From assembly GCA_031376505.1 (NCBI GenBank), contig JANMDX010000018.1, positions 24,214-88,213 of the forward strand: a stretch of 64,000 bases of DNA. Direction: 5' to 3'. Every line of letters starts with the position of its first letter. Positions within the stretch are counted from its first letter, which is position 1. This DNA comes from Acidobacteriota bacterium (GTDB lineage: Bacteria > Acidobacteriota > Vicinamibacteria > Vicinamibacterales > UBA2999). Positions 5,486-31,490 of the stretch are shown here, one piece after another. The notes under the pieces were generated by a model. It was not told the DNA's origin and searched no databases. It saw only the letters and a program-made list of their open reading frames with translations. A program made the translations under genes and the position numbers.

Positions 5486-6127
5486 TTATACAGGGTGTGC
5501 GTCGTTGAGGACCGACAGAAACCGGCGAACCCGGTCTTCCGGGGCCTCTGGGCCAACCAGTAGGTCCGAGATCACAGCCACACTCGCCGCGCCCGCACGA
5601 CGCACGGCCGCCGCCGTCGCCACCGTGATTCCGCCGATGGCCACGAGCGGTACACCGGCGCGCGCGAGCGCCGCCGCTGCATCCGCCACACCCGCCAAGC
5701 CCACGACGGGGTCCGGGGCGGCCTTGGTCGCAGTGGCGAAGACCGGTCCGTAGGCCACATAGTTGACGGGAAGGCTGAGGGCGAGCGCCAGCTGCGCAGG
5801 CGTATGCGTCGACAGCCCAACCACTGCCTCGTGACCGAGCAGGGCGCGCGCCTCAGCCGCAGGCAGGTCGTCCTGCCCCAGGTGCACGCCCAGGCCGGCG
5901 ACGCGGGCCACGTCGGCGCGGTCGTTCACGATGAGCGTGGCGCCGGCGGCGCGCGCCGCCACCGCGATCTCTTCGACGAGGTGCAGGAAGGCGCCGCTTG
6001 GGAGGAGCTTCGCCCGCACCTGAAGCAGCCTGGCGCCTCCAGCGAGATAGGCACGGGCAACCGCGGTCGGCGCTATGCCTGCGCGCGTGCAGGTATCCAC
6101 GTCGACAATGGCGTAGAGCGGCGACAT
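5486..6127 (-). CDS. thiE: Thiamine-phosphate synthase
   Basis: ThiE layout: LLQVRAK, LIVNDRADVA, GVHLGQDD, GLSTHT, PLVAIGGI. Confidence 0.85.
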   Translation of the reverse strand: MSPLYAIVDVDTCTRAGIAPTAVARAYLAGGARLLQVRAKLLPSGAFLHLVEEIAVAARAAGATLIVNDRADVARVAGLGVHLGQDDLPAAEARALLGHEAVVGLSTHTPAQLALALSLPVNYVAYGPVFATATKAAPDPVVGLAGVADAAAALARAGVPLVAIGGITVATAAAVRRAGAASVAVISDLLVGPEAPEDRVRRFLSVLNDAHPV

Positions 6128-6147
6128 CGCTCGTCGCGGAGACTGCG

Positions 6148-7518
6148 TCAGGCGGAGGCCGCGAGCGAAGAAGCCTTGGCAGGAGGCATGAACCGCTCCA
6201 TGAAATGGGTGTGGATCCGCCCGGCCACGAAGTCCGGATCGCTGAGGATCTTGAGATGCAGCGGGATGCTGGTCTTGATGCCCTCAATCACCGTCATCCC
6301 GAGGACACGCTTCATGCGGGCAATCGACTCGGCGCGATCACGGCCGTGGACGATGACCTTGGCAATCATCGAGTCGTAGTACGGCGTAATCGTACACTCG
6401 GCGTGGGCAGCCGTGTCGACCCGCACGCCAGGTCCGCCGGGAATCGAGAAGGCGTGAATCACGCCCGGCGACGGCACGAACGTCTCGGGATCCTCGGCGT
6501 TGACCCGGCACTCGAGCGAATGCCCCGTGAAGGTCACGTCGCTCTGGCGGACCGACAGGCGTTCCCCGGCCGCGATCCGGATCTGCTCCTTCACGATGTC
6601 GAGTCCCGTCACGAACTCCGTCACCGGGTGCTCGACCTGCACACGGGTGTTTACTTCCATGAAGTAGAAGTGGCCTTTCTCGTCCATCAGGAACTCGAAG
6701 GTTCCGGCATTGGTGTATTGCACCGCGAGCGCCGCATCGGCCACGAGTGCGCCCATCTTGCGGCGGATCTTGTCGGTGATGACCGGCGACGGCGACTCCT
6801 CAATGAGCTTCTGGTGCCGCCGCTGGATCGAGCACTCACGCTCGCCCAGGTGGATCACCGAGCCGTGGTGGTCGCCGAGGATTTGAAATTCGATATGGCG
6901 CGGCGAGTCGAGATAGCGCTCGATGTAGACATCGCCGAGTCCGAAGGCCGCTTCCGCCTCGCGCTGTGCCGTGCGCAGCGCATGCGGCAGCTCGGCCGGC
7001 GTTTTCACGACGCGCATCCCGCGCCCGCCGCCACCAGCGACGGCTTTCACGATCACCGGATAGCCGATGTCCTTGGCCAGCTGCACGGCGTGGTCTTCGC
7101 TCTCGACCGGCCCATCGCTGCCCGGCAGCATGGGCAGACCGGCCTTCTTCATCGCGCGGCGCGCCTTCGACTTGTCGCCGAGCAGGCGGATGACATGCGG
7201 GTCTGGCCCGATGAAGCGGATGTGGCAGGCCTCGCACACTTCCGCCAAGTAGGCACTCTCGGACAGAAAGCCGTAGCCCGGATGGATCGCATCGGCGCCG
7301 GTTATCTCGGCGGCGCTGATGATCGCCGGGACGTTCAGATAGCTGTCGGCGCTGCGCGCGCCGCCGATGCAGATGTCTTCATCGGCAAACCGCACGTGCA
7401 AGGAGTTCTCGTCGGCCTCGGAGTACACGGCCACCGTCTTGATGCCGAGTTCACGGCACGCAAAGATGATCCGCAGGGCGATCTCACCACGATTTGCAAC
7501 CAGGATCTTCTTGAACAT
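6148..7518 (-). CDS. accC: Acetyl-CoA carboxylase, biotin carboxylase subunit
   Basis: Full-length AccC similarity ([20 protein letters not shown]-grasp, EMNTR-like [15 protein letters not shown]). Confidence 0.97.
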
Positions 7519-7525
7519 GAGGGGC

Positions 7526-7981
7526 TCAGGCGCGCAGGCGGATGGCGAAGATTCGCTCGCCGTACTGCACCGGTTGACCGTTCTCGACGTAGACGTTCAC
7601 GACCTCCCCGTCGTACTCGGAGTCAATCTCGTTCATGAGCTTCATCGCCTCGATGATGCAGAGCACTTGGCCCTTCTTCACCTGGTCCCCGACGCTGGCG
7701 AGCGCCGTGGCACCGGGTTCCGCCGCCCGGTAGAAGGTGCCGACAATCGGCGACTTCACGATGGCCAGCTCGGCGCCGGCCTCGACCGGGGCTGCGGCCA
7801 GCGGGGCCGGTGAAACGGCAGGGCTCGCGGCGACGGGCGCCGGCATGTGCATGACTTGAGTGACCACGTGTGGACCGCCGCGTTTGACGCGCAGCTTGAA
7901 GGAGCCTTCCTCGAACTCGAACTCAGCCAGGTCGTGCGTCTGGACCAGGTCGAGCAGTTGCTTGATGTCTTCAGGATTCAT
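7526..7981 (-). CDS. accB: Acetyl-CoA carboxylase, biotin carboxyl carrier protein
   Basis: C-terminal biotinyl domain with EAMKLMNEI and an Ala/Pro linker. The start was chosen at [10 protein letters not shown] (ATG 7981), just after the pepP stop, rather than the longer track ORF. Confidence 0.9.
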
Positions 7982-9092
7982 GGGCCTCAAAACCCGGAAC
8001 GGCGCCGGTAAGGCGCTCGACTCCAGCTGCTGTAACAATCACGTCGTCTTCGATTCTGACTCCGCCGTGCCCAGGGACGTAGACGCCCGGTTCGACGGTG
8101 AACACCATTCCAGCGGCAACCGGCCCGGTGGCATCGCCCCTCGGCCCAATCACCGGTCGCTCGTGCACTTCGAGGCCCAGGCCATGCCCCGTGCTGTGGA
8201 CGAACCGTTCCCCCAGCCCCACCTGCTGCAGGTAGTCACGGGCGGCCGCGTCAATGCGTGACGGCAACACGCCCGGTGCGATCGCCTCAATGGCGACGCG
8301 CTGCGAAGTGGCGACCGCCGCCAGCCATTGCCGGCGGTCGCGCGATACGGTTCCGACCGCGACCGTGCGGGTCATGTCGACGGCATACCCCTCGAGGACC
8401 CCTCCGAAGTCGACCACCACCAGGTCGCCGGCGTCGATACGCCGGTCACTAGCCCGGTGATGAGGACGGGCGCCGTTGGCACCCGACGCCACAATGGTCT
8501 CGAACGCCGGCCGTTCGAAGCCGCCCACGCGGAGGGCGACATCGATGTCCCAGGCAACCTCACGTTCGGGCCGCCCGGCCAAGACCTTGGGCAGTATACA
8601 CGCGGCCACTGCAGTCAACCGAGCCCCCGCTTCGCGGAATATGGCCTGTTCCCACGGGTCCTTGACCATGCGAAGCAGCTCAACCATGCCGTCGGTCTCG
8701 ACCAGCTCGGCGCCGTGGGATCCAAGATGGCGGCGGATCGCACTGGCACGGCTCAAGGTCAAGGCGTCGGCTTCGACGCCAACGGCATGCAGGCCCAGTT
8801 CAGCGACGATGGCTCCGAGGCGCTCTTCGTAGCTCGAACCGACCGCGACGGCCACCACCGACACCTCGGGCAGGCCGGCGACGGCGTGCGTGAACGCCTC
8901 GCAGTACCGCTCGTCGGCCAGCAGCCTGACGCGGTCTCGCGTGATCACGGCAAGCCCGGCCGACGCGATCACACCGAACAGGTAGCGGAGATTTGGAAGA
9001 TGCGACACGACCAAGGCGTCGACGGGCGACTGCCCAACCGCAGACGCCAGACGGGCCAGGCGAGACCGACGCAGTTCGACTGGCGCTGACAT
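7971..9092 (-). CDS. Xaa-Pro aminopeptidase / M24 family metallopeptidase
   Basis: Creatinase-like N-domain plus an M24 pita-bread domain (DFGGVLEGYAVDMTRT, HSTGHGLGLEVHE, VFTVEPGVY). Confidence 0.85.
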   Translation of the reverse strand: MSAPVELRRSRLARLASAVGQSPVDALVVSHLPNLRYLFGVIASAGLAVITRDRVRLLADERYCEAFTHAVAGLPEVSVVAVAVGSSYEERLGAIVAELGLHAVGVEADALTLSRASAIRRHLGSHGAELVETDGMVELLRMVKDPWEQAIFREAGARLTAVAACILPKVLAGRPEREVAWDIDVALRVGGFERPAFETIVASGANGARPHHRASDRRIDAGDLVVVDFGGVLEGYAVDMTRTVAVGTVSRDRRQWLAAVATSQRVAIEAIAPGVLPSRIDAAARDYLQQVGLGERFVHSTGHGLGLEVHERPVIGPRGDATGPVAAGMVFTVEPGVYVPGHGGVRIEDDVIVTAAGVERLTGAVPGFEAHES

Positions 9093-23815: not shown

Positions 23816-25381
23816 TTACCGCGCCTGGGTCACATCGAACAGGCGGGCGTTCGACGGCGTGTCGGCGAGCGGAATCTCTTTGTAGCCCGCTTCGATCGCG
23901 GTGGCCACGTCCGGCTTGTCGTGGCTCAGGTCGTGCCAGTTCGTCACGGCCAGATATCGCGCGCCGAGCGTCGTGCGTAGCCACTCCACTTCACGAACTG
24001 AAATCGATTTCAGATCGAAGCTCCAGCCACGGCGGTGGGCGAAGTACAGGAGCATCGGCGAGTTCACGCCGTACTCGCCATACTCTACCGTCACGATCAG
24101 CCCCTCGGGGGTCGTGGACTGGCGAATGCGATCACCAATCGCCATCACGTCCTCCTGCAGGTTGTCGGGGCGATAGAGATTTCGCTCAACACCGGACCCC
24201 CTGACCCCTTGCACCGCGATCAGCGCCGCAAGCGCCACCAGCGAGCCCGACGCCAGACGGCCAGGGAGTTGGTGGGCGCGCCAGGCCGCATCGAAGATCG
24301 GTCCGGCGGCGACACCGAAGGACAGCAGCAGGGGGGGCAGCAGCGGCAACTGGTGAAACTCGTGCCAGAACTGACCCTCCGCGGCTGCCACAAACAGGGC
24401 AATCCCGCCCACCAGCCAGAGATCCACGACGACGCGCCCCGCCTCCCGGCGCATCCTGAGCCAGCCAAGCAGCGCGCCCATCGCGCCAATCGCGGTGAGA
24501 TGCAGCTGCCAGAAGCGGTCGCCGAGCTCGCGCCAGAATTCAACCGAGGCCAGGCGCGCCGCCGTCGCCCAGTGCGACACGGACGAGAACTGCACCCCAG
24601 GAGCCACGCTGATCGGATAGGTCCCAGACGGCCGGAATACAGCCTGGGTCAGACCCGTCTCCAGGAACACCTGGTCGGCGTGCCAGTACCACCCCGCCGT
24701 CAGCATGAGTGCGGCGATCGCCGCCACCCAGGCGCGACTATCAGCCAGCGCTCGCCATCGCTGGTGGCGCCACGCCACGCCCACGACGGGCGCCAGCACG
24801 AGAATCGCTGGCAGCTTCACGAGCGCCGCCAGTGCCGTGAACAACGACGCCCAGACAGCACGTCCAGTAGAGGGCCGCGCGAAGTAGACGTCCCACGCCC
24901 ACACCGCGGCCACCATGAACGTGAGCATCGGCGTGTCCGACAAGAAGCTCCGGCCGAAGAAGGCAATGCTGGGTGAGACCGCCATCAGCCACGCGCCGCC
25001 CAGGCCCGCCGGTCGGCCGAATAAACGAGCACCGAGGCCAAAGATGCTGACGACTCCCGCCAGAGAGAACAGCGTCGTCACCAGGCGGGCACTCACTGGC
25101 GACTCGCCCGTGACCCGCCACACGATCCCAGTGAGCCAGTGCAGCAGTGGGAACTCCATGCCCACCACGCCGTCGCGGCCGCCCCACGACACTTGTGGTC
25201 GCAAGATGTCGAGCGAGTCCTCGGCAAAGTGCCTCGCGATGTCGGCGTTGGTGACCTGTCGCCAACTATGCGCATCGATGAGCGGTGTAGTGATGTACCA
25301 GAGCCGCAGCGCGAGCGCGACCAGCAGAATCCCGAGCAGCGCGAGGTCGGGCGAGGCTGCTTTCCTGCCGATTGCCGTCAT
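23816..25381 (-). CDS. GT39-family (GT-C fold, PMT/ArnT-like) membrane glycosyltransferase
   Basis: 521-aa polytopic protein with a PMT_2/ArnT-like N-terminal half (LALRLWYITTPLIDAHSWRQ) and a soluble C-terminal domain. The start is trimmed to MTAIGRK (ATG 25381). Confidence 0.78.
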   Translation of the reverse strand: MTAIGRKAASPDLALLGILLVALALRLWYITTPLIDAHSWRQVTNADIARHFAEDSLDILRPQVSWGGRDGVVGMEFPLLHWLTGIVWRVTGESPVSARLVTTLFSLAGVVSIFGLGARLFGRPAGLGGAWLMAVSPSIAFFGRSFLSDTPMLTFMVAAVWAWDVYFARPSTGRAVWASLFTALAALVKLPAILVLAPVVGVAWRHQRWRALADSRAWVAAIAALMLTAGWYWHADQVFLETGLTQAVFRPSGTYPISVAPGVQFSSVSHWATAARLASVEFWRELGDRFWQLHLTAIGAMGALLGWLRMRREAGRVVVDLWLVGGIALFVAAAEGQFWHEFHQLPLLPPLLLSFGVAAGPIFDAAWRAHQLPGRLASGSLVALAALIAVQGVRGSGVERNLYRPDNLQEDVMAIGDRIRQSTTPEGLIVTVEYGEYGVNSPMLLYFAHRRGWSFDLKSISVREVEWLRTTLGARYLAVTNWHDLSHDKPDVATAIEAGYKEIPLADTPSNARLFDVTQAR

Positions 25382-25523
25382 GATGAGGGGCAATCGTAGC
25401 CCACCGACCTGCACGGAGGCCAGAGTGTGTATTCTCGTCAGTTGAGCATCAATTTGCGTCCCTCCGGGTGGATCCGGTGGTCTCTCGCCCCCGATGAACC
25501 GAGTGAAGCGGCAGGTATCGGAT

Positions 25524-25539
25524 TGGCACCGTATTCGCA
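25524..25539 (+). promoter_or_regulatory. Candidate sigma-54 (-24/-12) promoter
   Basis: TGGCAC-cgtat-TCGCA compared with the consensus TGGCAC-N5-TTGCA. GG and GC are separated by 10 nt. It lies about 35 nt upstream of ATG 25574, with GAGGA 6 nt before the ATG. Confidence 0.5.
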
Positions 25540-25573
25540 GGCGGTACACCGATTCGTGTCCCGAGGATTCCAG

Positions 25574-26881
25574 ATGCTGCGAAAGATCACCCACGTCACC
25601 CTACTGATGGCCCTGGTGGCCGTGCCGTCGCTGTCATCCGCGCAGGCGCCTGCCGCGCCGGTGCTGCAGGTCGCCGTCTCTGGCCAGACGGTGTCTGCTA
25701 CGTGGACGGCCGTGGCCGGCGCCACCAGCTACCGGGTCGAAGCCGGGCTCTCGCCCGCCGTGATGCTGGCTGGCTACGAGATGGGCGGGCTGACGACCTT
25801 TTCTATTTCGGCGCCTCAGGGCGTGTACTACCTGCGGGTGCTGGCGCGCAATGCCGGCGGTCTCGGCGCCCCGTCGAATGTCGTGACGGTGAGCGTACTG
25901 TCTGCGCAGGGGCCGCCACCCTCGCCGACGAACTTCGCGGCCAGCGTCAACGGCACAACCGTGACGTTGACGGCGCAGTTGCCCTCGGTGTCACTGACCG
26001 GCCTGCTACTGGTTGGCGGCGGCACGCCTGGGGCCTCGCAGGGCGTGGTGCCGCTGCAGGTATCGGCCCAGAACACCCTGCCGAATGTGCCCCCGGGCAC
26101 CTACTACACGCGGCTCGTCGCGGTGAGCGCGGGCGGTTCGAGCGCCCCGTCAAATGAAGTGCAGATCGTGGTGTCCGCCGCCGCGTGCGTGGCTCCCGCG
26201 ACGCCGGTGCTGAACGCGCAAGTGTCGGGGTCGGCCGTGGTCTTGTCGTGGGGCGCCGTGAGCGGTGCCGCCGGCTACCGCGTGGACGTGGCCACCACGC
26301 CCGGTGGCGCGCCGATAGCGTCGCAGCCCGTGGGCCCGCAGACGACCGCCCTGTCAAACCCGAGCGCGCCAGCGGGAACCTACTATGTCAAGGTCACGGC
26401 CCTTAATGCCTGTGGCCTCGGCGCCACATCGGCCGAGGCCACGGTGGTCATCACGCCGCCGGTCCCAGGGACCAACCGCACGCCGAATCCTCCGGCAGGT
26501 CAGCGGCTTCCTCTGCCAAACAAGGCGGCCGTGGTTGACGAGGTCGCGCGCCTCTATCCTGGCGACCTGCGCAACTCATGCCGCGATAGCGGCGGCAACA
26601 ACGACTGGCTCTTCCGTCTCGTCCAGCGCCTGCGTCAGGAAGACACGCGCTGGGGCCTCAACTGGAAGCGCGGGCGTACCGGCGACATGTCGCAGGACGT
26701 GGTCACCTACAATTGGGGTTCGCTGGCGGACGAAGGCAACCGTGAAATCTACGTCGTTGACGTGATCGGAGGGCACTGCGGTTCGAACCCTGGCGCCTCC
26801 TGGATCAACCAGACCGGTGTGGGCGGCGCCGACGCCGCCTGGACCCTTCAGCCCTTCACTGCTGCCGGCTTCCCGCGCTGA
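25574..26881 (+). CDS. Secreted FN3-like triple-repeat protein with uncharacterised C-terminal domain (paralog A)
   Basis: Signal peptide MLRKITHVTLLMALVAVPSLSSAQA, three ~90-aa FN3-like modules (..SW..V.GA.GYRV.., GTYYV+V.A.NA.G...PSNEV) and a 135-aa Cys-containing C-terminal domain. Confidence 0.8.
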   Translation: MLRKITHVTLLMALVAVPSLSSAQAPAAPVLQVAVSGQTVSATWTAVAGATSYRVEAGLSPAVMLAGYEMGGLTTFSISAPQGVYYLRVLARNAGGLGAPSNVVTVSVLSAQGPPPSPTNFAASVNGTTVTLTAQLPSVSLTGLLLVGGGTPGASQGVVPLQVSAQNTLPNVPPGTYYTRLVAVSAGGSSAPSNEVQIVVSAAACVAPATPVLNAQVSGSAVVLSWGAVSGAAGYRVDVATTPGGAPIASQPVGPQTTALSNPSAPAGTYYVKVTALNACGLGATSAEATVVITPPVPGTNRTPNPPAGQRLPLPNKAAVVDEVARLYPGDLRNSCRDSGGNNDWLFRLVQRLRQEDTRWGLNWKRGRTGDMSQDVVTYNWGSLADEGNREIYVVDVIGGHCGSNPGASWINQTGVGGADAAWTLQPFTAAGFPR

Positions 26882-26934
26882 GCGCGGCCCCACGCGGCCA
26901 TCTCTGCCGCCTGTGGTACACTTCTGCACGACTC

Positions 26935-26958
26935 AACGGGTGCCGAGTGGCACCCGTT
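26935..26958 (+). terminator. Perfect 10-bp hairpin downstream of paralog A
   Basis: AACGGGTGCC-GAGT-GGCACCCGTT, 54 nt after the stop. No U-tract follows. Confidence 0.4.
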
Positions 26959-27066
26959 GCCACGTGATCCCCCAAGATCGTCGGCGGAGATATCGTTGGT
27001 TGCGACCAACGGCCCGGCATGTCAGAAGGCCGGCTCGTTGCTCACTTTCGTGTCAAGGAGACTGCA

Positions 27067-28398
27067 ATGACAGGACGTTTCGTTCGGAGTTTCGCCGCAG
27101 CCGTGGCGCTGCTCATCGGCGCGGGCACAGCCAGTGCCCAGCCCCCAGTCTTGAGCCCGGCCACCGTCAACGGCTCGACCGTGACGTTCAACTGGTCGCC
27201 AACGGCTGGCGCCACCGGTTACCGTCTTGAAGCCGGGATTGCGCCTGCGGTCTATATCGGTAGCCTGACCCTTGGCGCGGTGACCACCTACGTGGCACCT
27301 GGCGTCGGAAACGGCGTCTATTTCGTGCGCCTGGTCGCCCTCACGGCTGGTGGCGACGTGCCGTCCAATGAGATTCGCGTCCAACTCCCCGCGCCCCCCG
27401 CACCCCCGACGAACCTGCAGGTCGTCCGCAACGGCACGGCCATCGTGGCGGCCTGGACGCCAGGCAGCGGCGGCGGCACCGCGACCAGCTACCAGCTCAG
27501 AGTGGGATTGACCGCCGGGGCCACCGACGCGTCGTTTCCGGTCGTGGGCACCACGTTCTCGGCCGGGCCGGTGCCCGCCAACACGTTCTTCTTCCGCGTC
27601 GTGGGCGTGAACGCAGCGGGCGCCAGCACCGAGTCGAACGAAGTGCAGGTCGTCATGCCCGCGGGCGGGGCGTGCGATGCGCCGCCGACGGTGACGTTCA
27701 CGCAGTTCACGTTCAGCTCCTACCTCAGCCTGTCGTGGGCGCCGGTACCCGGCGCGAGCGGGTATCTCGTGAGCGCTACCCAAAATGGCGCCGCCCTGGT
27801 CACCGATCAGCCCTACCCGCCGACGTTCACCAGCATCAGCACGACCGTGCCGCTGGCCACCTACACGATCACGGTGAAGGCGCGGTTCGCGTGTGGCTCG
27901 ACGGGCGCGCCGACTACGGCCACCCTGCTGGTGAATGGAGCGCCGCCCCCAGGGCCGCGCACGCCAGACCCGGCGCCTGGCACGCTTCTGCCGATTCCCG
28001 GCTATGGTCTGTCGGTCGTGAACCAGGTGGCCGCAGCGCGCCGCGACCTGTTGCTGAACTCCTGCAAGGACACCGGCGGCAACAACCGCTTCATGTTTGA
28101 AGTCGTCAAGGAATTGCGCGCGCGCGACAACCGCTGGGGACTGAACTGGAAGCGCGGTAATGTCGGCGACGTGTCCCAGGACATCGTGTCCTACAACCGC
28201 AGTGCGCTGTCTGACGAAGGGGCGACCACGGGTCCCACGAGCTCAACGTTCGCCATCTCGATTTTTGACATGATCGCCGGCCACTGTGGCGGCAATCCAG
28301 GACCGAATTTCGAGGACGTCACGGGCAAGACGATCGAAGGCGGCGCGCGCGCCGTGTGGACGCTCATTCCGTTCATCAACGCGGGCTACACGCCCTAG
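27067..28398 (+). CDS. Secreted FN3-like triple-repeat protein with uncharacterised C-terminal domain (paralog B)
   Basis: AAGGAGA lies 6 nt upstream of the ATG. Signal peptide MTGRFVRSFAAAVALLIGAGTASAQ, three FN3-like modules, and a 147-aa C-terminal domain alignable with that of paralog A. Confidence 0.8.
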   Translation: MTGRFVRSFAAAVALLIGAGTASAQPPVLSPATVNGSTVTFNWSPTAGATGYRLEAGIAPAVYIGSLTLGAVTTYVAPGVGNGVYFVRLVALTAGGDVPSNEIRVQLPAPPAPPTNLQVVRNGTAIVAAWTPGSGGGTATSYQLRVGLTAGATDASFPVVGTTFSAGPVPANTFFFRVVGVNAAGASTESNEVQVVMPAGGACDAPPTVTFTQFTFSSYLSLSWAPVPGASGYLVSATQNGAALVTDQPYPPTFTSISTTVPLATYTITVKARFACGSTGAPTTATLLVNGAPPPGPRTPDPAPGTLLPIPGYGLSVVNQVAAARRDLLLNSCKDTGGNNRFMFEVVKELRARDNRWGLNWKRGNVGDVSQDIVSYNRSALSDEGATTGPTSSTFAISIFDMIAGHCGGNPGPNFEDVTGKTIEGGARAVWTLIPFINAGYTP

Positions 28399-28495: not shown

Positions 28496-30508
28496 ATGAG
28501 TGACACACCGATGAAGCTGCTCTACACCGCCCTGCACATGCTGCCGCTGCTGGCGATGCTGTCCAATGCGTCCGACCTGCGCGCTCAGACGCCTGGTGCG
28601 CTGCCTGACGCGCCCGACGGCACGCTGGTTGTCGCCGGCAGGGTGACAAGCGTCGAAGCGCGCTGGGACGACCGGTCCCGCACGATTCACTCGTATGTGG
28701 CGCTCGACGTCGCCCGTGCCCTGCTCGGCATCGACGTGCCGTCACGGTTGGTGCTCGAACACCTTGGCGGCGAGACCGGCGGCATCGGCATGTGGGTCGC
28801 CGAGCAGGCGGCGTTCCGGGTGGGCGAAGACGTGCTCGTCGTACTCACCGCACGTCCGGGCGATCGTTCACTGCACACCGTGGGACTCGGCCGCGGCAAG
28901 TGGACGCTCGACACCAGCGCGATTGGCGGCCCGGTCGCGGGCGCGTCGCTGTCGCAGAGTGGCGCCTCGCCCACCATTTCCATCGCCGAAGCCGACCGGC
29001 GCCTCGCCCTCCGACCGCGTCAGGCCCTGCAGGTCTACGACGCGACGCCACCGGAGTTCGCGGCGTTCACGCGCCAGGCGGCGCCCGCGTTTGCGTACCT
29101 GCCAACCGACGGCGGCTATCCCGCGCGGTGGCACGAGGTGGACGAACGAACGCCCGTGTCGGTGGACCTGTCACCGCTGCCGGCCTCCTGGACCCACGCA
29201 AGTCCGGCCAATGCCACCGCCGCCATCAACCTGTGGCGAGGTTCCGGCATGGACCTCAACCTGCAGCAAGGCGGGACGTTCTCCGGTCAGTGCTCGGCCA
29301 TCTTCACCGGCAACGGACGCATTGCCGTGTCGTACAATCCGTGCCCGCAACCCATTAGTGACTGGGTCGTAGGCGGTGGGTACTACACCACCGGCGACCT
29401 GCGCACGGTGAACGGCACGACGTTCCAGAAGTTCATTCAGGGCTTCGTGATTCTCGACGACACCGGTCCACAGTCAAGCTCCGCGGGCTGTTTTCAAGAC
29501 GCCGTGACGCACGGCCTCGGCCACGCGCTGGGCCTGGGCCATACGACGAGCAGCGGCGCCATCATGCAGGCGGGGCCGAACTGTGGCGCCAGTCCAGCGG
29601 GTCTTGGCGCCGACGACATCTCGGGCATCACCGCGATCTATTCGGGTATTGCAAGCGGTCCGTTTCCGCCCGCCGCGCCGACGAACTTCAGCGTGACGGC
29701 GGCGCTCTCCACCGTGGCGCTCTCGTGGACACCCGCGGCGACGGGCGGGCCGGCGCAGCGCTACATCGTCGATGCCGGCAACACCGTGCCGGGCGTCTAC
29801 AATCTCGGGTCCACCACGTTTCCTGCCTCGACGACGTCCACGAGTGTCGGCGGCGTGCCAGTCGGAACGTATTACCTGCGCGTGCGCGCGCAGAATGCCA
29901 TTGGCACGAGCCCGCCCTCGGCGGAGCGTTTCGTGACTGTCGGCGCCTGCACACCGCCGAGCCGTCCCGGGACACTCACCGCGTCGTCGCTCGACACCCT
30001 CGTGAATCTCGGGTGGTCTGCGCCCGCGACGGGAGTGACCCAAGGCTACCAACTCGCTGTCGGCACGGCTCCGGGGCTCGCCAATCTTGGGGCGCAGAAC
30101 TACCCCGCCACGGTCACCGCGCTTTCTGGACCGGCGCCGTATGGCACCTACTTCGTTCGCGTGCTGGCCACCAATGTCTGTGGCGTCAGCCCGCCGTCAA
30201 ACGAAGTGACGCTGGTAGTACAACCGTGCGCGGCGGCACCGCAGGCGCCGACCGGGCTGGCCATCGCGAAGAGCGGCACGTTCCTGACGATCACCTGGAA
30301 CGCGCCAGCCGGCACCCCGCCCACCGGCTACACGCTGGCCGTCGGCAGCATGCCTGGGCTCAGCAATCTGGCCGTGCTCCCCACCGGCAACGCGAGTACC
30401 AGTCTGGCGGGCAACGCCCCACCGGGCCCGTATTACGTGCGAGTCATCGCGCAGAACGCCTGTGGGATGAGCGGGCCCTCGAACGAAGTCTTCGTCACCG
30501 TACCGTGA
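28496..30508 (+). CDS. Secreted matrixin (M10 metzincin)-like protein with HGxxH motif and three FN3-like modules (paralog C)
   Basis: Signal-like N-terminus (MKLLYTALHMLPLLAMLSNASDLRAQ). Metzincin signature HGLGHALGLGH, a Met-turn (GAIM) and LGADDISGITAIYSG. Three modules of the same type as in A and B follow. The start is 28496 or 28511. The longer track ORF runs through the terminator hairpin. Confidence 0.8.
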   Translation: MSDTPMKLLYTALHMLPLLAMLSNASDLRAQTPGALPDAPDGTLVVAGRVTSVEARWDDRSRTIHSYVALDVARALLGIDVPSRLVLEHLGGETGGIGMWVAEQAAFRVGEDVLVVLTARPGDRSLHTVGLGRGKWTLDTSAIGGPVAGASLSQSGASPTISIAEADRRLALRPRQALQVYDATPPEFAAFTRQAAPAFAYLPTDGGYPARWHEVDERTPVSVDLSPLPASWTHASPANATAAINLWRGSGMDLNLQQGGTFSGQCSAIFTGNGRIAVSYNPCPQPISDWVVGGGYYTTGDLRTVNGTTFQKFIQGFVILDDTGPQSSSAGCFQDAVTHGLGHALGLGHTTSSGAIMQAGPNCGASPAGLGADDISGITAIYSGIASGPFPPAAPTNFSVTAALSTVALSWTPAATGGPAQRYIVDAGNTVPGVYNLGSTTFPASTTSTSVGGVPVGTYYLRVRAQNAIGTSPPSAERFVTVGACTPPSRPGTLTASSLDTLVNLGWSAPATGVTQGYQLAVGTAPGLANLGAQNYPATVTALSGPAPYGTYFVRVLATNVCGVSPPSNEVTLVVQPCAAAPQAPTGLAIAKSGTFLTITWNAPAGTPPTGYTLAVGSMPGLSNLAVLPTGNASTSLAGNAPPGPYYVRVIAQNACGMSGPSNEVFVTVP

Positions 30509-30518
30509 GCGCGCCTTC

Positions 30519-31490
30519 ATGATGCCCGAGCCGTTGCCGCTAGCCGACTTGCCGCGCGAGCACTTCTTGGCTTTGCTCGAGGCACATGCCTTCAAGCCGT
30601 ACCGCCAGTACCGGACCTACTCGCGGAAAGAGCAGCTCGCGATTCTGCAGGCGGAAGTCGACAGCACCCTCGCTATTTCAGGCGACTTCAGCCGCGTGGT
30701 CGGCGCTGACTCGCCCCGCGCCGCAGTCGTTGCGCGGCCACTCGCGTGGGACACGGCGTTTTTCGGCGTGTCCATGGCGCGCATCGACGGCGTGCTCGTC
30801 GCGCCCGAGGCGACGCGCGAGGATCGAATTGCGGTGGTCCAGGCCACCTGCAGCGCCGCTCGCGCCGCCGGCATCCGCCACCTCACCGCGCGGGTCGATG
30901 TGGCCGACCTCGACACGTTGGGCGTGCTCGAGGACCACGGCTTTCGCACGATGGATGCGCTCGTGACCTACATCATGCGGCCGGTGAAGGACCCGCCGCG
31001 CGACGTGCGCACCGTCGGGGTGATTCGCGAATCGCGCACGGACGATCATCCCGCCATTCTCGAGATCACTCGTGAGGCATACGAGGGCTACCGGGGACGC
31101 TTCCACCTCGACCCGCACCTCTCGTCGGCCCGCGCTGACGAGCTCTACGTGGAGTGGGCACGGCAGTGCGTGAGCGGCGCGATGTCCGACATCATCATGG
31201 TGGCCGAGGATTCGCTCGGCCGCCTGCAAGGGTATCTGGCGTACCGCCGCCGCGAGCCCGCCTCGAGCCTCGGCATGCCGATTTTCGGGGGCGGCCTCGG
31301 CGCGTGCCGGCGCGATTCCCCCGGGGCGTATGCCAGTCTCATCCGCGACGCCACGATCTGGTCGCATGCCCGTGGCGGCATGGGCGAGTACCAGACGCAG
31401 AATTACAACTTCCCGGTCATTCGCGTCTACGAAGCCGCTGGCGCCCACTACGTGCGTGCCGAATACACGCTCCATGCATGGCTTGGATGA
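30519..31490 (+). CDS. GNAT-family N-acetyltransferase, WecD (dTDP-fucosamine acetyltransferase)-like, two-domain
   Basis: PLAWDTAFFGV resembles the WecD N-terminal motif, with a GNAT-like C-terminal half. No signal peptide is present. It starts 10 nt after paralog C. Confidence 0.55.
   Translation: MMPEPLPLADLPREHFLALLEAHAFKPYRQYRTYSRKEQLAILQAEVDSTLAISGDFSRVVGADSPRAAVVARPLAWDTAFFGVSMARIDGVLVAPEATREDRIAVVQATCSAARAAGIRHLTARVDVADLDTLGVLEDHGFRTMDALVTYIMRPVKDPPRDVRTVGVIRESRTDDHPAILEITREAYEGYRGRFHLDPHLSSARADELYVEWARQCVSGAMSDIIMVAEDSLGRLQGYLAYRRREPASSLGMPIFGGGLGACRRDSPGAYASLIRDATIWSHARGGMGEYQTQNYNFPVIRVYEAAGAHYVRAEYTLHAWLG

Follow-up and report, generated by a model that had tools for sequence, protein, structure and literature searches.

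An unnamed exported domain at the C termini of FN3-stalked bacterial proteins, with relatives in phages and a possible role at the cell envelope

The 64,000-nucleotide stretch analyzed here (the window; contig JANMDX010000018.1 of GenBank assembly GCA_031376505.1, from an Acidobacteriota bacterium of the order Vicinamibacterales) carries two adjacent genes, A and B, whose products end in a shared domain behind a stalk of fibronectin type III (FN3) modules. We found that this shared C terminus founds an unnamed family, an autonomous exported alpha+beta domain of ~125 to 135 amino acids (aa). Tentatively, on sequence evidence, we favor the reading that the domain is a new cell-envelope-directed module, quite possibly a binder rather than an enzyme, which would bind peptidoglycan or a wall-attached glycan.

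A domain family with a confidently predicted fold

An initial annotation, made from the sequence and its translations, had noted an end-to-end alignment between the C-terminal 135 aa of A and the C-terminal 147 aa of B, and this is borne out: over the whole length of the domain, 70 of 144 positions are identical (49%), with 64% positives (BLASTP, single comparison, E = 4e-45). Because of this E value, the likeness is far beyond chance. All six of the blocks that had been listed (RTP.P..G..LP.P, NSC(R/K)D(S/T)GGNN, RWGLNWKRG, GD(M/V)SQD(V/I)V(T/S)YN, GHCG.NPG, and WTL.PF..AG) occur in both proteins. The extra insert described for B as ATTGPTSSTFA is real, but it amounts to 8 residues within that stretch, in the loop after DEG.

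The domain also could not be assigned to a named family, as had been supposed. The isolated domains of A and B (P0001 and P0002) had no match in NCBIfam or PHROGs, nor in Pfam with the cut-off relaxed to E ≤ 1, and full-length A and B, together with two phage proteins, gave none among the PADLOC families. Sequence searches of the PDB with a single domain and three profiles returned chance-level rows only (E = 0.92, 1.1, and 0.46, and 0.088 on a coiled-coil tail). Neither Pfam nor the PDB sequences thus held a confident match to a characterized family, and the listed motifs are conserved in homologs. There was no match to LysM, SH3b, OmpA-like, PG_binding, SPOR, Hydrolase_2, Phage_lysozyme, or amidase families in Pfam, and, apart from the weak wall-peptidase rows described below, none of them was among the fold rows listed. 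A tblastn search of the domain against 50,697 phage records found nothing. The literature searches, judged from listings and the beginnings of abstracts, turned up no description of the domain.

The family is nonetheless large. In a hidden Markov model (HMM) scan with a profile of alignment A1 (HMMER), the representatives of 1024 clusters (clustered at 50% identity) scored E ≤ 1e-3; 550 of them remained at a cut-off of 1e-10 and 214 at 1e-30. In a word-indexed search, 52 relatives of 74 to 237 aa were all unnamed or labeled "hypothetical." Longer proteins with the domain numbered 432, and the best 120 of these are listed as hypothetical or unnamed and annotated only with FN3, PKD, PPC, and one PF14686. 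A feature search of the ESM Atlas returned only uncharacterized viral clusters and weak clusters of the restriction endonuclease (REase) type.

The initial annotation had suggested a folded, possibly catalytic or ligand-binding domain, a reading that finds support here; that the domain is folded agrees with the AlphaFold2 model of the A domain, built on a 40-row alignment (predicted local distance difference test score, pLDDT, 94.8; predicted template modeling score, pTM, 0.90). In the predicted topology, an ordered, proline-rich N-terminal strap is followed by three helices (residues 18-27, 29-33, and 44-56 of the domain), a five-stranded antiparallel sheet (60-65, 76-80, 92-99, 107-112, and 121-124), and a short C-terminal helix (126-130). 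The five strands follow one another as a meander, and strands 3 and 4 are not separated by a helix. DSSP puts the first cysteine, C36, ahead of a turn of 3 residues; the long helix 44-56 begins 8 residues further on.

Against the PDB, Foldseek found nothing at E ≤ 0.001. The weak top rows were the transglutaminase-like part of menin (4.5), LapG (3.7), the C-terminal domain of the PSL lectin (3.7), and protein-glutaminases (3.5, 3.4, and 3.1), with further weak rows for arylamine N-acetyltransferases, SseI, TglA, PeiP, a transglutaminase, and Rad4. Wall-peptidase folds (CHAP, NlpC/P60 spr, PlyPy, and PeiP) appeared as well, all far from significant. The common theme of these rows would be a Cys-His "transglutaminase/papain-like" fold, which we treat only as a lead. 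Significant structural matches came from BFVD alone, where they belong to two uncharacterized proteins of uncultured Caudovirales phages, A0A6J5QSJ9 (E = 2e-5; TM score by query, 0.66; root mean square deviation, 2.5 over 118 columns) and A0A6J5MLQ7 (E = 0.018). Their likeness to the domain is structural, whereas their sequences are only 18 to 20% identical to it and unannotated.

Residue conservation and the cysteine pair

With an HMM built from the domain columns of A1, we aligned 222 near-complete copies of the domain, drawn from the collected proteins and the phage loci and numbered here by the A domain. Conservation is highest at D75 and D96 (99% each), followed by R59, N63, and K65 (97% each), S73 (96%), R66 and G61 (94% each), D57, R54, C36, and C102 (93% each), T114 (92%), Y79 (91%), and H101 (88%). 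The two cysteines had been called invariant. Exactly two do occur in the domains of both A and B, but over the 222 copies each is near-invariant only.

Taken together, C36, H101, and C102 occur as CHC in 192 copies, CxC in 11, xxx in 10, Cxx in 4, xHC in 3, xxC in 1, and xHx in 1. The two cysteines are kept or lost together, and the histidine is not tied to them. The copies lacking all three residues belong mainly to one phage-type clade and retain W60, G61, N63, K65, R66, G67, D71, S73, D75, D96, I98, D112, and T114 almost without exception; the phage clade also keeps D57 and R59 of the polar cluster D57/R59/N63/K65/R66/D71/S73/D75/D96. Protein P0177 has lost both cysteines and kept the histidine; in P0132 and P0174, a cysteine is still there, shifted by 1 to 3 positions. 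A and B have four cysteines each, one pair in the third FN3 module and one in the C-terminal domain. The simplest reading is a structural disulfide, because the cysteines are co-retained and co-lost, the histidine varies independently, and the proteins are exported and have a cysteine pair in each of their FN3 modules as well. Since the phage clade without both cysteines and the histidine keeps the rest of the conserved residues, a structural disulfide is also favored over a catalytic cysteine. Judged from these patterns, a disulfide between C36 and C102 is the most likely arrangement.

Sequence identity is higher in the domain than in the stalk that carries it, as seen in comparisons of domain with stalk at loci L006 (84% versus 73%), L019 (71% versus 57%), and L020 (66% versus 40%). 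By this measure of sequence, the domain is the most constrained part of A.

Architecture and gene neighborhoods

The placing of the domain at the end of an FN3 stalk, which the initial annotation had read from A and B, holds for both proteins, and the terminal position holds for most full-length copies of the family. Pfam recognizes fn3 (PF00041) N-terminal to the domain in A (E = 1e-8, 35.7 bits) and in B (E = 8.5e-11, 42.4 bits; cut-off for both, 25), and the domain ends 10 residues or fewer from the C terminus of the protein in 158 of 174 full-length copies. Among 61 representatives scanned with Pfam, the partners were only FN3, PKD, TIG, Ig_Rha78A_N, N_BRCA1_IG, and PhoD_N-type Ig-like domains, plus DUF5719, DUF7910, and T4SS pilin; the Ig-like matches were all N-terminal, and no catalytic partner domain was found. 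The signal peptides of A and B, read from the translations, lack a lipobox cysteine.

Copies of the domain often come in multiples. Two or three copies are present in 15 of 200 proteins, and two copies were found in 42 of 63 genomic loci, 37 times as two open reading frames (ORFs) and 5 times, always in Myxococcota (L058, L061, L065, L067, and L068), as one ORF with both copies behind a lipoprotein-like N terminus (…ACA/ACS). The first copy in these five loci has lost N63, K65, and R66 (GLDR---R) and kept the cysteine pair, D75, and D96. It has also gained a third cysteine (GDGCPEG).

Relatives in phages were collected by three scans of IMG/VR, which yielded seven contigs representing six distinct phages. 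In four of the six (L069, L073, L074, and L075), a stand-alone secreted version of the domain is encoded directly after an endolysin gene. The 246-aa protein of L069 consists of a signal peptide, the domain, a proline-rich linker, and a tail that weakly matches only coiled-coil proteins (PDB, E = 0.088 to 0.82), and the start ATG of its gene overlaps the stop codon of an endolysin gene (Phage_lysozyme; PF00959, phrog_7). The endolysin of L073, L074, and L075 is of the Hydrolase_2 type (PF07486; phrog_938 and phrog_15649), and in L074 and L075, the next gene after the domain gene encodes a holin of the Pam3 gp28 family (PF23987). The domain gene of L077 follows a protein with a weak tail-repeat match. 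The N terminus of the phage version resembles a cleavable signal peptide ending in AAAQ, without a lipobox, and the phage domain proteins have no match in PHROGs.

Several other genes accompany the domain gene in these phages. A small secreted FN3-like gene lies upstream of it in L075 (4402-4911, directly) and L076 (3981-4607, one ORF further), and the L075 protein is weakly similar to the FN3 modules of A (E = 0.002); in these phages, the modules that are fused in bacteria are thus paired as separate genes. Just before the endolysin, L074 (4173-4496) and L075 (3796-4062) encode small proteins that have a single hydrophobic segment at the N terminus and otherwise look like a coiled coil; they are candidate inner-membrane spanins (i-spanins) or holin partners (Pfam, none or DUF5617 at E = 0.0097; PHROGs, E = 0.0014 to 0.0033 for L074). 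Beside the domain gene of L077 are two further genes, one for a PEP-CTERM protein (5766-6485; PF07589, E = 7e-7) and one whose product weakly matches ART-PolyVal ADP-ribosyltransferase (6504-8111; E = 1e-6).

In bacteria, 174 stretches encoding a relative were found among 185,579 species genomes, and 63 loci were kept for the neighborhood counts. By their titles, these are mostly from Vicinamibacterales or Acidobacteriota, together with 5 from Myxococcota (Polyangiales, Myxococcaceae, and one "Deltaproteobacteria") and 7 labeled Bifidobacteriaceae, probably in error. An even sample of 201 Acidobacteriota genomes contained 9 with a match, 8 of them in the order of the window. Pairs in Vicinamibacterales sit in a conserved order of pyridoxal-phosphate enzyme, phosphofructokinase, (PMT_2), A, B, (PMT_2), and M10-type protease, in which the phosphofructokinase is found at 42 of the 63 loci, the protease at 39, and PMT_2 at 22. 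Because of this conserved order, the cluster is taken to be vertically inherited core material and not an island. Elsewhere, at L056 and L066, the domain gene lies among GT4, epimerase, nucleotidyl-transferase, LPG_synthase_TM, and outer membrane protein barrel genes.

The features of the window are collected in Table 1. A Shine-Dalgarno-like GAGGA precedes the ATG of A. A start at this ATG predicts a product of 435 aa, and the length of database protein P0235 agrees with it (435 aa; 100% identity over 100% of the 135-aa A-domain query).

Table 1. Coordinates of genes A and B, their parts, and their neighbors in the window
Feature	Positions	Strand	Description
Gene A	25574..26881	+	435 aa; signal peptide, FN3-type stalk, C-terminal domain; from the ORF list
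Signal peptide of A	25574..25642	+	MLRKITHVTLLMALVAVPSLSSA before QAP; read from the translation; cleavage inferred from an A-x-A-like motif
FN3-type stalk of A	25643..26473	+	fn3 and PKD matches; Cys205 and Cys280 in the last module
C-terminal domain of A (P0001)	26474..26878	+	135 aa, residues 301-435 of A; from AlphaFold2 and conserved columns
Cys336 codon of A (domain C36, NSC motif)	26579..26581	+	Proposed disulfide partner 1
His401-Cys402 codons of A (domain H101-C102, GHCG motif)	26774..26779	+	Cys402 is proposed disulfide partner 2
Gene B	27067..28398	+	443 aa; start ATG at 27067, preceded by AAGGAG; signal peptide, FN3 stalk, C-terminal domain
Signal peptide of B	27067..27138	+	MTGRFVRSFAAAVALLIGAGTASA before QPP; read from the translation; cleavage inferred
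C-terminal domain of B (P0002)	27955..28395	+	147 aa, residues 297-443; Cys333 and Cys407; same family as the A domain
GT-C membrane glycosyltransferase PMT_2	23816..25594	-	Divergent neighbor of A; PF13231, E = 9.4e-16
Gene C	28496..30508	+	Exported matrixin-like zinc protease (HGLGHALGLGH), then three FN3 modules; start at 28496 or 28511
ORF after gene C	30519..31490		323 aa; no Pfam match at 1e-4

For the glycosyltransferase gene, the listed GTG is probably too far upstream to be the true start. Orthologs of this gene lie upstream and on the minus strand in some loci; in others they are on the plus strand and separate B from the protease. In twelve loci (L019, L022, L023, L025-L029, L031, L033, L035, and L038), it lies downstream of domain genes on the same strand, mostly between B and the protease and, in L038, between two separated domain genes. 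PMT_2 thus remains with the cluster while its position varies between lineages. Gene C, the M10-type protease (Peptidase_M10, E = 4e-7; fn3, E = 5.9e-20), does not have the C-terminal domain of A and B and is among the constant partners of the pair. About 330 residues without a Pfam match precede its HGLGHALGLGH motif, and its FN3 modules have cysteine pairs. The ORF that follows gene C has an ortholog in 13 of the 63 loci, sometimes on the opposite strand; the label of a WecD-like N-acetyltransferase was not confirmed for it, given that it has no Pfam match.

The genome of the window, a 435-contig assembly, has five domain copies by our count. Contig C311 (locus L002, 1-2826; 6.3 kb) contains a near-duplicate PMT_2-A'-B' fragment that encodes similar but not identical proteins, with an A' of 441 aa; it is either a second strain binned into the metagenome-assembled genome (MAG; contamination, 4.11%) or a recent duplication. 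A second tandem pair is on contig C34 (locus L005, 916-2058 and 2034-2993), with a 25-base overlap and a more divergent domain (GYNAKPTR for GLNWKRG, and the ending WTGAGRF); FN3 modules occur in one gene of this pair, and the N-terminal part of the other is unannotated.

The seven MAG records named "uncultured Bifidobacteriaceae bacterium" are L026, L034, L040, L054, L055, L057, and L062. Because L026, L040, L054, and L055 show Vicinamibacterales synteny and a phosphofructokinase 76 to 85% identical to that of the window, their names seem to be wrong. In L034 and L062, only A/B-type genes are present, and L057 has no match to any of the neighbor probes.

Envelope binding and its alternatives

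We tentatively propose that the domain anchors its fusion partner by gripping peptidoglycan or a wall-attached glycan. In the predicted fold, the conserved proline-rich strap (RTPxPxxGxxLPxP) leads into the three helices and then into the antiparallel sheet, and the disulfide would tie the NSC loop, which joins helices 2 and 3, to the GHCG hairpin that follows strand 3. Polar residues retained in all lineages may make up the working surface: D57-x-R59-W-G61-x-N63-x-K65-R66-G, which spans the end of helix 3 and strand 1; D71-x-S73-x-D75, ahead of strand 2; D96, in strand 3; and W-x-D-x-T114, in strand 4. Vicinamibacterales carry the domain on the FN3 stalks of A and B, encoded with an M10-type protease and a GT-C glycosyltransferase, and phages carry it fused to an apparent coiled-coil tail, from a gene in the lysis cassette. 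An envelope target is suggested by the export signals, the lysis-cassette position in four of the six phages, and the envelope-glycan neighbors in bacteria. Since copies occur in multiples, as paired genes or tandem copies, or are fused to an apparent coiled coil, the binding may be multivalent. Gripping is favored because of the terminal position on variable, noncatalytic stalks, the paired and tandem copies (a degenerate one included), the coiled-coil tail, which would render the phage version multivalent, and the dispensability of the cysteines and the histidine.

It is possible, if doubtful, that the domain is instead a cell wall-cleaving enzyme, either a divergent papain/transglutaminase-like Cys-His(-Asp) peptidase or amidase that uses C36, H101, and D112 or a small protein of the glycosidase or lytic transglycosylase type that uses D75 and D96. 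The phage version would then be a second lysin beside the endolysin, and A and B would be wall-remodeling enzymes on stalks, a role for which we hold the same reserve. In papain/transglutaminase folds, a cysteine is followed by a histidine after a strand and an aspartate on the following strand, and the order of residues in the domain fits this rule. LapG (4fgo), protein-glutaminase (2zk9), NlpC/P60, and CHAP, which represent the commonest theme among the best fold rows, likewise have N-terminal helices on an antiparallel sheet, a cysteine before a helix, and a histidine after a strand, and they too are exported and periplasmic or wall acting. The NlpC/P60, CHAP, and transglutaminase rows, the 99% conservation of D75 and D96 among many invariant charged residues, and the adjacency of the phage gene to an endolysin all argue for an enzyme. 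Yet no peptidase or glycosidase family was matched in Pfam at E ≤ 1, and C36 lies 2 to 8 residues before a helix and not at its first turn. Moreover, a clade of 10 copies without C36, H101, and C102 keeps the other conserved residues, and 11 further copies have both cysteines and no histidine; a catalytic Cys-His dyad was rejected as the primary reading on account of the clade without them. Tandem copies in one chain and the degenerate first copy in Myxococcota would also be unusual for catalytic domains.

Several observations nevertheless weigh against the proposed envelope binder. About ten charged or polar residues are invariant, more than most binding modules keep, and this pattern is typical of enzymes. 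The position in the lysis cassette fits a second lytic enzyme at least as well as it fits a binder, and lysis cassettes are a known insertion spot for unrelated secreted phage genes. Two of the phages, L076 and L077, have no recognizable endolysin among the plus-strand ORFs of at least 110 aa of the fetched stretch (with mostly overlapping ORFs dropped). The co-losses of the cysteines represent few independent events (one phage clade, copy 2 of P0178, and P0177). Finally, a two-domain model of the natural tandem protein P0062 (11-row alignment) shows both domains folded and joined by a disordered linker, with a pTM of 0.44, so that a fixed packing of paired domains finds no support in structure prediction.

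The same model bears on an improbable reading, in which the domain is a protein-binding module: either an inhibitor or regulator of peptidoglycan hydrolases that presents the GHCG loop, like Ivy, MliC, PliG, or T4 Spackle, or a unit for dimerization or docking, through which A would associate with B or protease C. Consistent with this are export, the likely stabilization by a disulfide, and the histidine next to a cysteine in a hairpin loop, reminiscent of the CKPHDC loop of Ivy; so are the endolysin gene beside the phage version, the conserved adjacency of A and B, the presence of both copies in one chain in the five Myxococcota loci, and the M10 protease neighbor in bacteria. However, the GHCG loop is lost precisely in the phage clade next to Hydrolase_2 endolysins, no Ivy, MliC, or PliG rows came up in the fold searches or Pfam, the tandem model predicts no packing, and there is no M10 protease in the annotated stretches of the phage contigs. 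We regard as very improbable a secreted nuclease or toxin of the PD-(D/E)xK restriction endonuclease type, with the C-terminal placement seen in polymorphic toxins. The domain is C-terminal and has conserved aspartates and lysines on strands, and the ten best matches among named clusters in the language-model feature search fall in one clan (Tox-REase-9, 0.90; VRR_NUC, 0.84; Tox-REase-7, 0.82; and Tox-REase-2, 0.81). That score of 0.90 comes with 142 shared features, below the 170 usual for members of the same family, and a third of shuffled proteins also gave ten of ten. Nor is there a Pfam match at E ≤ 1, a nuclease in the fold searches, or an immunity-like gene after A or B; across an order, the cluster keeps its synteny with housekeeping genes. 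A conserved C-terminal domain on a variable stalk is the reverse of what polymorphic toxins show, and on this ground and the missing immunity gene, a polymorphic toxin was rejected.

Comparison with known systems bears on the envelope binder as well. SLH, LysM, and SH3b anchors and PlyCB, the wall-binding subunit of a two-gene phage lysin, resemble the domain in their terminal position after Ig-like or FN3 stalks, their tandem or paired copies, their envelope-glycan neighbors, and their place beside phage lysins. No sequence or fold relationship to them was seen in Pfam or among the fold rows listed, and the polar conservation of the present domain is much denser. The phage version recalls the spanins (Rz/Rz1 and unimolecular spanins) and LysB-type second lysins in that it is an exported protein encoded between endolysin and holin, with a proline-rich linker and an apparent coiled-coil tail. 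Unlike spanins, however, the phage version has a globular N-terminal domain, a cleavable-looking signal peptide, no membrane anchor or lipobox, and no PHROG, and other small genes in the same cassettes, which encode a transmembrane segment and a coiled coil, could be the true spanins.

A further conjecture, which we consider unlikely, is that the domain is the catalytic or membrane- or wall-disrupting head of a new class of phage lysis factors, one that would join holin and endolysin as a third component in the phages of high-GC diderms, and that Vicinamibacterales and Myxococcota took the module into their core genomes on paired FN3 stalks to remodel or attack cell envelopes. If so, both the fold and the enzymatic or disruptive mechanism acting on the Gram-negative envelope would be new. 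Whatever probability the readings listed here leave over goes to something not considered.

The family comprises at least a thousand sequence clusters with a confidently predicted fold that is apparently unmatched among solved structures, and it has no name in the libraries searched. Its members come from two bacterial groups that are dominant in soil and largely uncultured, and from phages that probably infect them. A wall binder would be a new anchoring module, useful as a wall-targeting tag and for the annotation of hundreds of "hypothetical" stalked proteins, and a wall cutter would be a new type of lysin. The location of the phage gene between those for endolysin and holin suggests that phages open the diderm envelope with the help of an undescribed component.

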